Assembly: GCA_036867785.1 (NCBI GenBank)
Contig: CP145415.1
Coordinates: forward strand, 620,001-684,000
DNA from: Plasmodiophora brassicae
Lineage: Eukaryota
Direction of reading: 5' to 3'
Length of the DNA stretch: 64,000 bases
Below the pieces are notes generated by a model. It saw only the letters and a program-made list of their open reading frames with translations, did no database searches and was not told the DNA's origin. Positions 9,921 through 64,000 of this stretch are shown in pieces (position 1 is the stretch's first letter; the number at the start of each line of letters is the position of its first letter). A program made the translations under genes and the position numbers.

Positions 9921-10389
9921 CGACGACATCGGTGGGAACGCGAGGCACGTCCCAGTTTGCAAGAGATATCAGAGTGAAGCGTGTACATGCGGAAGGAATC
10001 CAGCTGCGGTTACGAGTTCGGCCGAACGTTCAGGGATCGTTCCGGCCGAGGGATTGCCCGACCCAGGATGACGACGGAGGCGTTTCGACGCGCACCAGGG
10101 CCAGACGACTCCAGATGAACCCCCTGCTCGACGGACGCTGTACTGCTCTTTGCAGCAAGGGAGTCATGGTTTGGTGCTGCCTGCTCAAGTTCCTGATAAT
10201 ACGCGGCCGTTCCCGAATCGCGTCGTCGACCTGTATGTACCCTGGCCTGGGGACCTAGGTATGTGTTCCAGCCCCCAACCGCAGCTGGATTCCTCGCGAA
10301 CGTACACGCTTCACTTTGATGTCCCTTGCGAACTGAGACGTGCCTCGCGTTCGTGGTCGCCGGCCGTTACGTTCCCATCGATGTCGTCG
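9921..10389. repeat. Imperfect long inverted repeat (arms ~9921-10011 and ~10277-10389)
   Basis: Both strands encode nearly the same peptide (RGTSQFARDIRVKRVHAEGIQLRL vs RGTSQFARDIKVKRVRSRGIQLRL). The DNA arms are reverse complements with an indel. Confidence 0.85.
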
Positions 10390-37616: not shown

Positions 37617-37904
37617 CTGGGGAGGTGGACGAATGGCCCGTAGCACAAGGTTGTGTCGCCAATGCTCGACGAGTGCCACAAGTACTCGATCGAATATCGA
37701 TACAGGTACAATGTGAACAAGTGCGTCCTGAGCGTGCCGAAGCACCACCCAGCGTCAGGGTCGGTAGCGGTGGCAGCGCCGGGTGCTTCGGCACGCTCAG
37801 GACGCACTTGTTCACATTGTACCTGTAGCGATATTCGATCGAGTACTTGTGGCACTCGTCGAGCACAAAACCTTGTGCTACGGGCCATTCGTCCACCTCC
37901 CCAG
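37617..37904. repeat. Near-perfect fold-back inverted repeat (arms 37617-37746 and 37782-37904, 35-nt loop)
   Basis: The arms are reverse complements apart from one substitution and one small indel/bulge region. Confidence 0.97.
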
Positions 37905-40325: not shown

Positions 40326-41095
40326 TGCAGCGAGCGCTTGGCGTTGCAATGGAAAAAGACCCGAACATCCGGGTATCAGACAAGCGGTTGATGAAGACCC
40401 TTACCTGCCGAGTTCGTACGGTACGCTCGCCGAGATGTTGCATGCGCGGCTCTGTATGACTACTTCATGCAGTTTAGAGAGTGCACCATTCCGATTGCGT
40501 CAGGGATCGTAATCTCCGGTTTACGCATCGATATCGTGATTGGATCGAACGGCAAGCGGCTTGCTTTCTAGCGGCCCTTCTGGAGCTGCGGGCGTCTGCG
40601 TAGACGATATTCCTTTTCCGGGCCTACGTCTAGGATTTCACATGGGCATCATTGGCATAGAAGCTCCTTCCTGTTGCCGTTCTTGCGCTTCGTCATGAGA
40701 GCCGGATGCTACCTTCGGTTGAAGGCAATCGCGAGGATGCCGTTTGGAAGAATATTTGGCACTTGCTTGACGTAATACTCGTCAGGAAGGCACTCGACAT
40801 TATTGACGTCTGTAAGCATGAATATCGTCTACGCGGACGCCCACAGCTCCAGATGGACCTGTAGAAAGCAAGCCGTTTGCCGTTCGATCCACTCACGATG
40901 TCAACGGGTAAACCGGAGATAACAATCTCTGGCGCTATTGGAATGATGCACTCGCTAGACCGCATGACATAATCATACAGAGCCACATGCGTGCGCGCGT
41001 ACCGTACGAACTCGGCAGACAAGCGTTTCTTCAACCACTTGTCTGATACCGGATGTTCGGGTCTTTTCCCAATGCAACGCCAAGAGCTCGCTGCA
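40326..41095. repeat. Diverged long inverted repeat (arms 40326-40612 and 40820-41095)
   Basis: For example aaaagacccgaacatcc.ggtatcagacaag / cttgtctgataccggatgttcgggtctttt and ggatcgaacggcaa.cggcttgctttcta / tagaaagcaagccg.ttgccgttcgatcc. Confidence 0.93.
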
Positions 41096-59961: not shown

Positions 59962-61161
59962 TTAGACGGCCGGGTTCCGGTGCAGGTACGGGAGCATCGA
60001 GACGTGCGTGCCGACCTTTTCCTGCTGTGTGCGACCGATGGCCCCGGCGTCGATGTCCACTATCTGTGGCCTGGGCAGCTCCTCGTAGGTGATGTCCCGC
60101 GGTTCCGTCGTCGTCGTTACGAACGACGGCGACGTGTTCCCGCCTGCTTTGGACGATGCCGACTCCATGGCCTGCCGGAACGACGACTTGGAGTGCACGG
60201 TCCGGATCGACGGCACGTCGACGCGGGACTCGTTGATCAGCTTGCTGATCGCTTCGTCACTCGCCTCGTCGCCATCATCATCGACATCGCCACCATCAGG
60301 TTCGTTGTCGTTCTCCCTGTGCTGGATCAAGTGATCGATAGGCCCGATCGGACTCTGATCAGGTTGCCCGTCCTGAATCGCCTGCCGCCTCGACTTGGCC
60401 GCTTCAGTATCAGCAGAGAAATCGTGACCAGCCAGAAGGGTAACCCGGTCCTTGACGCTTCTCACTAAGTCCTGGATCTCGACGTCGGCCAGGTACTTTG
60501 AAATGTCGAGCGATGCCGCGAAATCGATGAGCTCCTGGATCTGCTGACGTTGGGCGGCCGCGCCTTCCTCCTCCGTCATCGACCAGGCGGGTTTACTGCT
60601 CTGCGACGACGCTCGCGCCTTCTCTTCGGCGTCCTTCCTGAGTTTCCACAGCGGCGCCGAGAACAGCATGCTCGCCTCGCGTTCTGTCAGTGCCGAGGCA
60701 CTGCCTTTGACCGCCTCACAGATCCGTCTGCGAACGAAAGCCGCCCTGATGCATGCAAGTCAGCAAAGGACGCGTTTCGTACAGGGATAGTCTGAGTGGT
60801 ACCGCTCTTTGAAGTTGCGCATGCGTTCGTCCTGCTGGGCTTGTTCAGCGAGCCTGTGTTCGGTGTATTGCTGCCGTTCGTTCTTCAAATCGTCTAGCCA
60901 CTTGCGATGCTTCTTGATGGCGGGCGGCGTCACCGTAATGCGTTTCTTGCGGAGGAAGGCACCCGGGCGTCGAACAGGCGGGTATCCAACCCGTTCCGAT
61001 AGATGCCCGCCAGAAACAAACGGCGGTTTACGACCCGGTTGCGCTGCCAGGCCTGTCGGCGGCCGCATCGACAGCATCACGCCCTTGTAAATGATGTGGC
61101 TATTGCTGGCCGCTGAAGGGACCCGCACAGGCGGGTCCGACAGCAGCGCTTCGTTCGACAT
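59962..61161 (-). CDS. Conserved hypothetical protist protein, spliced
   Basis: KKHRKWLDDL, KPAWSMTEEE, ELIDFAASLDISKYLADVE, C-terminal LPYLHRNPAV. Confidence 0.75.
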
Positions 61162-61316
61162 GCCGCCGCCTCTCAACTGGTACACTACGACGACCCACTC
61201 GAATATGATATCCTCGATCGCCTAACCCCGAGGCGAAGCAGGTCCGTTCTCATAGCAGACGAAACTCCAGCGTTTAGGGCAGCTGCAAGCGAATGCGACA
61301 CGATGTACCATCAGCA

Positions 61317-61490
61317 CACTAAGCACTATCAGGCGAAACTATTTGGCAAGATGATGCTTAGCGCACTGATGTACACCATGGCGTATTCTCTGACAAAGGT
61401 GACGTCCGTCAAGACTGGAATCTTTCAAAATGAGATCAAGCTCCGTCCTCATTGCCGACGAAGTTCCGCCTCGCCTGATAGTGCTTAGTG
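61317..61490. repeat. Inverted repeat, hairpin 1 (20-bp perfect core)
   Basis: cactaagcactatcaggcga (61317-61336) / tcgcctgatagtgcttagtg (61471-61490). Confidence 0.88.
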
Positions 61491-61516
61491 CACGTACAAT
61501 CGATGACGTTCACCTG

Positions 61517-61676
61517 GAGGAACAGGAATCCGTATGCGTTCATGTTCACTCCACCGTCTACTTGCACGGCGTCGTTGTACATATTACAAGCTGACCGAGT
61601 AGGGGCTAGTGTGTACATCGACGTGCTGCAAGTAGACCGTGACGCGAAAATGAACGCGTACGGGTTCCTGTTCCTC
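61517..61676. repeat. Inverted repeat, hairpin 2 (~65-bp imperfect stem)
   Basis: gaggaacaggaatccgtatgcgttcat / atgaacgcgtacgggttcctgttcctc and gtctacttgca / tgcaagtagac. Confidence 0.9.
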
Positions 61677-61729
61677 GCGGTTTCATCGGTGCTGCCGTCA
61701 TCAACGACCATCTCACACTCCGACAGCTC

Positions 61730-62024
61730 GTTACGTTCGCCAGCTGAACAGCGCAACCGGAGGAGAATTGGTCCAAACCAGTCATGGATGCCGTTGCGGT
61801 ATTCAGAGTACTAGCGCCTTTAGTATTCTCATCGACACCTTCGTTGCTGCGAGGAGCCTCTAGTACTGTCGATGAGGACCTCTACTACAAGCGCCTTTAT
61901 TGCCCAAATACATTCTCAAAGCGAGTTGCCGAGATAGTTCCGGGTGCGTTTATACCGCAACAGCATCCATGACTGGTTTGGACCAATTCTCCTCCGGTTG
62001 CGCTGTTCAGCTTGCGAACGTAAC
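61730..62024. repeat. Inverted repeat, hairpin 3 (73-bp arms, 2 mismatches)
   Basis: 61730-61802 is the reverse complement of 61952-62024. Confidence 0.95.
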
Positions 62025-62851
62025 AGCGTTCCGCCGTATACCGAGACTAGGACGTATATCCAACCATCCGGTTTTCATCACCACTATCGTCGCTTCAGCC
62101 TCCAGCACCAGCAGGCAGACCCCGTCGTTAGAAGCGCTGAGTACACCTGACTCGCCAACTGACTAGGTCTCGGAACATGCATTCGGGGATGAGAGGCGCA
62201 TAATGGAATGTCAAAAAGGAGAGCCGTTTGATCTCACTTGCCATGTCAGATAGGAGTTATCAAACAGATGAGTACAGGGAGCGCCCAGTGGCTGTCAAGA
62301 GGGGGCACAGCTTATGTATATAGTGATCGAATATCCAATCGATGCGCAACGCCCCGCTTTTGTCAAGCAGCAATAATGCAGGAGAAACCAGGGGACCCCA
62401 ACGTCTCCCAGGACACTTTGACCCGTTCCTGAATGCCAGCGTGTCACCTGCAGGGCGATCCTTCAACAAAATCGCTCTCCTGGCGACGTGCCGTCAACTA
62501 CTGCTCTTGGACAGACGCTGGTGTTGCGGAAGGCAGAAATGGGCTTGGGTAACGTCGCAATATCGCGATCAGGGGTTTAGGTATCGGAATTAATTCGACT
62601 GATCGACAAGCAGCAAACGGAACTCACCGGCACGCTGCTGGATGTCACCGCTGTCGTCGGAGACAACCTTCGATCGACGATCCGTGAGGGTCCCTGGAAG
62701 ATGTCGCATGGCGGCAGAGGAAGTTGCGGTAACGTGGCGGCGTCGAGAGGCCACTATACCGCGGACGCCGCAGAGCTGCACTGCACCTACCGTACTTGGC
62801 CCCGTGCCGTGGGGGGCCCCGTGGCACAGCTGGGCAGCCCGCAAGCGCGGC

Positions 62852-64000
62852 ATGATGATGCTGCTGGCACGGCGTCTGGCGGTGGTGTCGGCAAGGCGGA
62901 CCTGGGCCCCGCTGGCCAGGGCGGCACGCGTCCGCCTGCCGGGGACGCCGTCGTGGCTGTCGGGTTCGTCGGCGTCGTTCGCGTCGGTGCCGCGGTTCGA
63001 CGAGGAGGAAGAGGACGAGTTCGACGATGATGATGAGGAGGAAGAGGAGTTTTCATCTGTCGAATCTGACGATGATGACGATATCGATGAGGCCGACGAC
63101 GACGATACGGACGGGGACGATAACGACGACGATGTTGACGATGACTTTGATGGAGATCATGCTGCATCCGGCGATGAGGATGACTGGGCGATGATGTCCG
63201 ACGAAGATGCGGCGTCTTCTGTGGAATCGTTAGATGTCAACCAAGCATCTGCTGAAGCTGCCGAAGCTGGCGTGACAGGGATTGCCGGAAACGAGAAGAA
63301 GAAGGAGTTCGTGCTACGCAAGGCACCGAAAGGAATGCGGCTGAAAGCAAAGTTCTATGTGCCGGTACGTCAGAGCTTACATCGTGCCTGAACCGTCTGT
63401 AACCTTTACGAGCAGGGCAAGTCTGTCGGGTCGCAATGCTACGGATGCGGTGGTATCATCGCGAAAGGGTCCGACGCTAATCGGTCAGAGATCGTTGCCG
63501 TCAGCAAATCACAGTATAGAAAGGGCATAAAACGATACGCGCTGTGCAATCGCTGTCGGAAGCTCCACAAGGCTGAAGAAGATGGTGATCCGGAGGAGGC
63601 CCCGATTGCACCTAAGCGGATCGTCGACGTCGAGGTGTTTAAGAGAGAGGCTGCAAAGGTCTGAGTATCACGGAACACGTTAACAACATCGGCGTCCTCT
63701 TACTGACGTTACGTTTGACAGATTAAAAACTCTCCAGCGTGGGTGATCCACGTCGTTGACGGTACCGATATTGACGGGTCATTGATTCGAGGCGTCCGGA
63801 CGTTTGTGGGGAAGAATCCTATAGTGCTGGCCGTCACCAAGTGCGACCTTCTTCCTGAGGATATATCTGACGAAGCAACCCATTACCGCATCAAGAAATT
63901 CATCGAAGAGCGCGCTAAGCAAAAGCAGGTCAACGTTCACGAAATCTTCTTGATGTCGGCTCTGCGAAACAGTGGCGTTGCCCCGCTTGTCAACTATATC
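62852..64000 (+). CDS. NOA1: NOA1/YqeH/Gep3 circularly permuted GTPase, organellar, truncated by the window end
   Basis: Transit peptide, CYGCG..CNRC zinc motif, VIHVVDGTDIDGS, NPIVLAVTKCDLLP, LMSALRNSGV. Confidence 0.88.

Follow-up and report, generated by a model that had tools for sequence, protein, structure and literature searches.

In a cluster of three long hairpins between two divergent genes of Plasmodiophora brassicae, the first two appear to be what is left of a broken Mutator-like element, whose transposase gene was folded back on itself, and the middle one would be cut into the 21-nt RNA Pb-miR122. We give this reading, in which the locus is an aged fold-back resembling a proto-miRNA, a probability of about two in three. 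Pb-miR122 itself has already been published (Zhang et al. 2026, PMC13547706); what would be new, judging from the sequence, is its origin in the catalytic core of a Mutator-like transposase. The window, i.e., the whole stretch of DNA analyzed (64,000 nucleotides, G000:C10:620001-684000), belongs to an assembly of 25.28 Mb in 20 contigs with ends of TTTTAGGG type. Small RNAs published for P. brassicae match this assembly exactly and in collinear order, which makes the species nearly certain.

Hairpin geometry, source family, and genomic setting

The three hairpins are located where the first-pass annotation had placed them, as both the inverted-repeat and the alignment results confirmed. Hairpin 1 has arms at 61317-61336 and 61471-61490 (20/20 paired), and those of hairpin 2 are found at 61512-61586 and 61607-61681 (75 nt, 80%; 61517-61676 by BLAST). 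In hairpin 3, a single-copy left arm (61730-61802) and a right arm (61952-62024), both of 73 nt and complementary at 71/73 positions (97%), enclose a spacer of 149 nt (61803-61951) in which a further, short inverted repeat lies near 61828-61876. The gaps of 26 and 53 nt between successive hairpins follow from these coordinates. Folding gave a z of -24.5 for the whole region, with 0 of 20 shuffles as good, and single-hairpin values of -5.2 for hairpin 1 and -14.9 for hairpin 2 (0/200 shuffles each). Hairpin 1 is the weakest, with a 20-bp core only and a rival inner pairing at 61288-61391. For hairpins 1 and 3, the minus strand gives a slightly more stable fold than the plus strand (-80.4 versus -71.4 kcal/mol and -196.2 versus -188.6 kcal/mol, respectively). 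A search of Rfam over 61000-62700 gave no match at E values up to 1.

The hairpins had also been described as unrelated in sequence and free of transposase, and here the first-pass annotation has to be corrected. A genome search with 61250-62080 recovered 17 matches at 75 to 80% identity, 13 of them on other contigs. We then aligned 15 consecutive pieces of the window to three elements, with 30 shuffles each, and seven pieces within 61234-61729 exceeded the null against the full element L012, on alternating strands. These remnants of a dead Mutator-like transposase fill the stretch, which comprises hairpins 1 and 2 plus the spacer ahead of hairpin 3. Piece 1 (61234-61337, plus strand, sense, L012 8064>7961) is 77% identical over 104 nt, with a score of 112 against a null maximum of 33, and includes the region of the CxxH motif (by protein alignment) and the left arm of hairpin 1. 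Piece 2 (61339-61388, minus strand, antisense, L012 7956>8007, 46 versus 34) folds back on piece 1 and gives rise to the competing inner hairpin, while piece 3 (61393-61466, plus strand, sense, L012 8108>8031, 49 versus 34) lies within the loop of hairpin 1, and piece 4 (61471-61492, minus strand, antisense, L012 7962>7983, 36 versus 28) is its right arm. The 5' arm of hairpin 2 corresponds to piece 5 (61497-61581, minus strand, antisense, L012 8212>8296, 79% over 85 nt, 98 versus 31), antisense to the part of the gene with the first catalytic aspartate, and the 3' arm to piece 6 (61610-61681, plus strand, sense, L012 8298>8227, 79% over 72 nt, 84 versus 38). Piece 7 (61682-61729, minus strand, antisense, L012 9135>9182, 75% over 48 nt, 48 versus 29), antisense to the first coding exon, makes up the spacer that separates hairpins 2 and 3. 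Three of the seven are weaker than the rest, their margin over the best of 30 shuffles being just 8 to 15 points. One transposase gene thus accounts for the arms and loop of hairpin 1, for the two arms of hairpin 2, and for the spacer, and hairpins 1 and 2 are related because their arms derive from it. No piece of the wreck maps to the element ends in the L012 alignment, and no target-site duplication is left around the wreck. Short copies in alternating direction are the usual trace of repeated template switching. Two further pieces narrowly exceeded the null (61803-61951 by 1 point and 62400-62640 by 4), and we treated them as noise.

The source of these pieces is a dispersed family; its young copies, on contigs C17, C7, and C1, are nearly identical (99.8 to 99.9%), and older ones are found on C7, C12, C16, and C20. 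L012, on C7, is flanked by a perfect 9-bp target-site duplication (9/9) and has a perfect inverted pair of 59 nt near its ends; in the C17 copy (L011), such a pair is 85% alike over 40 nt, and a target-site duplication was looked for and none was seen. A relative on C14 (L028/L039, G000:C14:1009693-1012821) resembles an intact element from a related family, with 124-nt inverted repeats (99%) around an intronless MULE-like ORF of 850 aa and a target-site duplication of 8/9 bp. The exons of the family itself gave no transposase match in Pfam; they match the 850-aa ORF (E value of 1.5e-15 in one search and 7e-21 in another), which on PF10551 scored 27.7 bits against a cut-off of 27.6 in one search and 23.2 in another. 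A CxxH motif was read in both the family and the C14 ORF. Cys/His patterns are visible by eye in the family proteins, with no zinc-finger match in Pfam, and a PDB search with the C14 transposase gave 0 matches. Some regions of the element protein presumably deserve the labels SWIM and Ulp1. Mutator-like elements are described as having target-site duplications of 8 to 10 bp, terminal inverted repeats typically longer than 100 bp, a DDE transposase with a (C/D)xxH motif, and a zinc finger (Liu and Wessler, PMC5499845). Because of the PF10551 score of the C14 relative, the CxxH motif, the 9-bp duplication, and these described traits, we regard the family as probably Mutator-like, the type of its transposase being assigned by proxy through the C14 relative. 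Some peculiarities of individual copies should also be mentioned. The young copy at the end of C1 (L013:1186-4640) is truncated directly by telomere repeat, the C7 copy contains an insertion (L012:3449-5055) with 208-nt perfect direct repeats at its bounds, and the ends of L012 combine two end types and contain palindromic sub-repeats.

The divergent arrangement of the flanking genes was borne out by introns on opposite strands in the public run X1 (taken as RNA by guess), with CT..AC on the forward strand at 60744-60802 in the left gene and GT..AG at 63363-63415 in the right one. The first coding stretch of the left gene (60760-61161, minus strand) is an ORF that X1 supports with a minus-strand intron and with a contig reaching 61085, and a Pfam search with it gave no match. 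The right gene (62787-64000, plus strand) is spliced, with a depth of 217 in X1, and has a weak match to the GTP-binding domain PF00009 (E value of 9e-4, under the curated cut-off). The likely ATG of the left gene is located ca. 70 bp from the transposon wreck, across 61161-61234, so that its promoter or 5' UTR may be transposon-derived, hairpin-forming sequence. Inside a minus-strand ORF, X1 skips 63 nt at 60294-60358, with GT..AG on the plus strand and at an 8-nt direct repeat, which may be an antisense intron, a template switch, or a deletion allele.

Pb-miR122 and the small-RNA record

A hairpin miRNA is expected as a 20- to 24-nt RNA on one arm, in a duplex with no more than five unpaired bases and no large bulge; a star strand with 2-nt overhangs, precise processing in replicates, and a regulated target are further criteria. 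Hairpin 2 contains at 61616-61636, on the plus strand, the exact and single match, in the window and in the genome, of Pb-miR122 (21 nt, 5' cytidine; PMC13547706, Table S8). The RNA lies on the 3' arm, sense to the transposase, and the fold predicts its star, with 2-nt 3' overhangs, at 61559-61579 on the same strand. In the duplex, 3 of 21 bases are unpaired and there is no bulge. Table S8 lists 234 miRNAs with no star given, Pb-miR122 at Ctg_8:681040-681327, and the predicted star does not appear in it; Pb-miR122 is outside the three validated miRNAs and has 0 mentions in the main text of the paper. The calling was done with relaxed settings (strand cut-off of 0.5 and fold size of 1000). According to the same authors, P. 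brassicae has 21-nt small RNAs biased toward 5' C, two AGOs, and a Drosha-like RNase III giving 21-nt products; Dicer and RdRP are absent, and the dsRNA source of the siRNAs is described as unknown because of the missing RdRP (PMC13547706).

The offset between the published assembly and ours is 474 to 479, as set by Pb-miR123, located 4 kb further on, if its interval holds both arms. Translated in this way, the listed interval of Pb-miR122 corresponds to 61517-61804 on the plus strand, with edges uncertain by ca. 3 nt (start at 61514-61519 and end at 61801-61806), and begins at the base of hairpin 2 and stops where the left arm of hairpin 3 ends on its inner side. Hairpin 1 remains outside, though only 26 nt away. 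Since the interval of Pb-miR125 covers one arm only of a long repeat, the intervals of Table S8 seem to act as read clusters, and we infer that small-RNA reads fall on hairpins 2 and 3, with few on hairpin 1. At an offset of 477, the start at 61517 falls two 21-nt steps ahead of the predicted star, as would be expected if cutting were phased and began at the base; with six offsets possible, the agreement serves only as a consistency check. The first-pass suggestion of a small-RNA locus is therefore right as far as hairpin 2, with its published plus-strand RNA, and an interval reaching the left arm of hairpin 3 are concerned. The tables of the paper hold no other miRNA, phased, or hc-siRNA entry on the locus. 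A transposon fold-back origin of small-RNA loci was not found in the available text ("inverted" has 0 hits and "palindrom" 1), nor was such a link found in a literature search covering mostly papers outside subscription.

Contigs of 4 public runs (of 21) bear on transcription, although strand, ends, and level are not readable from them. Two of them start at the same position, 61976, inside the right arm of hairpin 3, and extend into the right flank (61976-62214), the X1 contig to 62160 (depth of 2.8) and that of X6 to 62214 (depth of 3.4). The common start is a weak hint of a transcript remnant, the alternatives being a cleavage end or a graph branch from an allele of the other arm. Contigs of X7 and X10 match 61362/61372-61628 with no listed difference, and by eye they stop at GCWGC sites, presumably the enzyme site of restriction fragments, so we took them as reduced-representation DNA and not as small RNA. 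A low-depth X7 contig matches 61615-61694 with 3 differences and continues with 167 unrelated letters; it is either a chimera or another allele.

From these data, the history of the locus could be reconstructed as follows. A Mutator-like copy, of a subfamily ca. 21% diverged from the young copies, would have been broken up between the two divergent genes and its transposase gene recopied in short alternating pieces, probably because the template was switched repeatedly while a break or gap was repaired. The recopying would have left hairpins 1 and 2, hairpin 3 being added or homogenized later. A noncoding plus-strand transcript, probably from the promoter of the left gene firing backwards, would run through hairpin 2 into hairpin 3. 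The Drosha-like RNase III, shown to act on other substrates (PMC13547706), would cut the stem into 21-nt pieces with no need for RdRP, and one of these pieces, the published Pb-miR122, dominates. When young, the hairpin would have given siRNAs against its parent family; since then it would have drifted into an aged transposon-derived hairpin or proto-miRNA.

Alternative readings of the locus

Among the alternatives, the one that survives best, although still improbable, is that Pb-miR122 has been domesticated, i.e., that it came from the transposase fold-back and is now under selection to regulate genes of the parasite or the host. The canonical-looking 21-nt duplex with a 5' C and a fully paired basal stem would agree with this, as would the presence of the locus in the published isolate and of 61362-61628 in two other runs, and Arabidopsis halleri has miRNAs that derive from MuDR and for which gene targets are predicted (10.1101/2024.07.25.605110). 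However, the decay of the stem argues against it. In a tree of seven family rows over 72 columns (two short matches of 46 and 29 nt were left out), the arms of hairpin 2 are sisters with a UFboot of 90. They share seven sites against the family majority, four of which are in 0/7 family rows, and differ from each other at 14 of the 72 columns (4 G:U on the plus strand, 2 A:C, and 8 transversions, read from the columns). Sister arms, shared sites, and 14 differences point to one ancestral copy that folded back and later decayed, and 10 of the 14 differences break plus-strand pairs. As the first-pass annotation remarked, the two mismatches in the basal stem are G:U on the plus strand, but the argument fails over the whole stem, where 4 of the 14 differences are of this kind. 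A strand bias of G:U as a sign of selection was considered and rejected (4 versus 2, P = 0.34 for 4/6). The basal 27 bp, with two G:U pairs only and no true mismatch, could reflect selection or gene conversion; overall, the arms appear to carry no sign of selection for pairing. As for targets, Pb-miR122 has 2 other genome sites with up to 3 mismatches versus 1 for the reversed control, and the 28 targets listed for it, all in the parasite, are predictions at a low miRanda threshold, none of them validated according to the available text (PMC13547706).

The idea of the first-pass annotation that the three hairpins form a polycistronic cluster, processed as a unit from one transcript, fares worse, and we consider it distinctly unlikely. 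In its favor, the listed interval joins hairpin 2 to the left arm of hairpin 3, and contigs of two runs lead from 61976 into the right flank. On the other hand, by coordinates and by eye, a listed miRNA falls on one hairpin of the three, the interval leaves out hairpin 1, and hairpins 1 and 3 are more stable when folded from the minus strand. Besides, it is common here for inverted repeats to have a neighbor, 13 of 26 others having one within 1 kb.

It is no more plausible that hairpin 3 is a nonautonomous, MITE-like element inserted into the wreck. Its long, near-perfect terminal inverted arms, its unique spacer, and its start exactly at the end of a transposase piece would suit such an element, but no second copy was recovered. 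The DNA search of the genome, which skips very common words, gave self matches only, and two reading frames gave self matches plus one at an E value of 0.14. None of eight reading frames matched Pfam, and no match was found to three elements or to eleven genomic loci. As the first-pass annotation had noted, there is no target-site duplication either, only repeats of 3 to 5 nt at unsymmetrical ends. With 71/73 positions paired, hairpin 3 should be younger than hairpin 2, or homogenized. A resemblance of its left arm to the start-codon region at the 5' end of the element was not significant (P = 0.07 to 0.09 for three copies and 0.49 for a fourth).

Much less probable still is a locus of the Mu killer kind at work now in silencing the young family copies on C1, C7, and C17. 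An inverted duplication of transposase sequence, young copies that are 99.8 to 99.9% alike, and a plus-strand 21-mer at 61471 with only 2 mismatches to them would be in line with such a function, but that 21-mer falls outside the listed interval. Pb-miR122 has 6 differences to the young copies and, being sense to the transposase, cannot guide against their mRNA, and the three in-phase antisense 21-mers have 5, 4, and 5 mismatches to the young element. Not one of 476 wreck 21-mers is found exactly in the young element, compared with 88 of 485 for a fold-back on C12 (L016:4252-5039, G000:C12:184252-185039; 505 nt, 93%), which would be a much better candidate for a Mu killer than the window locus and which overlaps PHAS21-49, if the offset of 122 to 161 from Pb-miR142 holds over 16 kb. 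The sense orientation of Pb-miR122, the 0 exact 21-mers, and the apparent lack of selection for pairing point to an aged fold-back and not to a working Mu killer. Finally, an assembly artefact, to which the lack of any contig bridging hairpin 3 among the four public runs and of any listed run with >24% of the words might be ascribed, is barely credible given arms that differ by 3 to 20%, the contigs of two runs matching 61362/61372-61628, and the same offset to the published assembly on either side of hairpin 3 (477 at hairpin 2 and 474 to 479 at Pb-miR123).

Fold-backs as a possible dsRNA source and comparison with known systems

The aged fold-back in the window is one case of a pattern that is frequent in P. 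brassicae and that may answer where the dsRNA comes from. Other decayed copies of the family with fold-backs in the transposase gene are found on C12 (the one described above and a second copy), C16, and C20. That on C20 (L035:5839-6302, G000:C20:105839-106302), from the older subfamily (L014 type), has 170-nt arms that are 98.8% alike, and there are three further inverted repeats within 4 kb of it. The C16 copy (L015:7227-8009, G000:C16:46227-47009) has two adjoining fold-backs, the second of which holds Pb-miR186, with a partial copy in L014. Elsewhere on C10 (L038:5557-5888, G000:C10:1244557-1244888), a fold-back lies over a distant MULE-like transposase match, and its two halves coincide with PHAS21-418 and PHAS21-419. 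The remaining large inverted repeats in the window are also associated with listed loci: 9936-10352 with Pb-miR120, 37617-37904 with PHAS21-410, and 40326-41095 with Pb-miR121 and PHAS21-411.

We compared inverted repeats and phased loci over 224 kb of C10, in regions selected to surround the 23 phased loci that Zhang et al. give for Ctg_8. The 29 distinct inverted repeats detected make up 2.8% of the bases. At an offset of 476, 11 of the 23 loci overlap an inverted-repeat arm; 64 other offsets (excluding 17 close to the peak) gave 0.94 such loci on average and never more than 3. The 11 are not independent, as they sit on 9 repeats. Locus and repeat often coincide edge to edge. Nine of the 12 loci with no detected repeat are on the left part, the offset having been calibrated for positions past 580 kb only; there, 9 of 12 loci overlap, compared with 2 of 11 on the left part. 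This overlap points to fold-backs as a candidate source of dsRNA in an organism with neither RdRP nor Dicer. A broader scheme, possible and still rather doubtful, is that fold-back wrecks of transposons are the main source: damaged elements would regularly be recopied as hairpins, which the Drosha-like enzyme would cut into phased siRNAs directed at the family of origin and which would shrink, as their arms decay, to single miRNA-like products. The window locus would then show two ages on one transcript (hairpin 2 being old and hairpin 3 young), with the C12 copy as the current silencer of the family. In any case, the locus gives a handle on the question left open by Zhang et al., the dsRNA source of siRNAs without RdRP, and with about half of the phased loci of the chromosome on long inverted repeats, this question is answerable from existing public reads. 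Some of the 234 listed "miRNAs" may represent the dominant reads from fold-backs of transposons.

Hairpin 2 is identical to the Pb-miR122 locus of Zhang et al. in sequence, coordinates, length (21 nt), and 5' C; the available text of that paper assigns no origin to Pb-miR122 and does not settle where siRNA precursors come from (PMC13547706). The locus resembles the Mu killer of maize in being an inverted duplication of a Mutator transposase gene from which a hairpin RNA is possible (PMC3440606). [quoted passage not shown] Similar to plant polycistronic precursors of nonhomologous miRNAs (PMC2812943), several hairpins are found close together; here there is one listed miRNA, two hairpins have a common origin, and a shared transcript is a candidate. 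The MuDR-derived Aha-miR13 family likewise turned rearranged Mutator sequence into a 21-nt hairpin miRNA (10.1101/2024.07.25.605110). Plant transposon-derived miRNAs are cut by Dicer-like enzymes and often born from MITEs (10.1101/2024.07.25.605110), while that of the window would come from the catalytic core, is single copy, and occurs in an organism without Dicer or RdRP. On balance, the window locus seems closer to a young miRNA derived from a transposon than to Mu killer.
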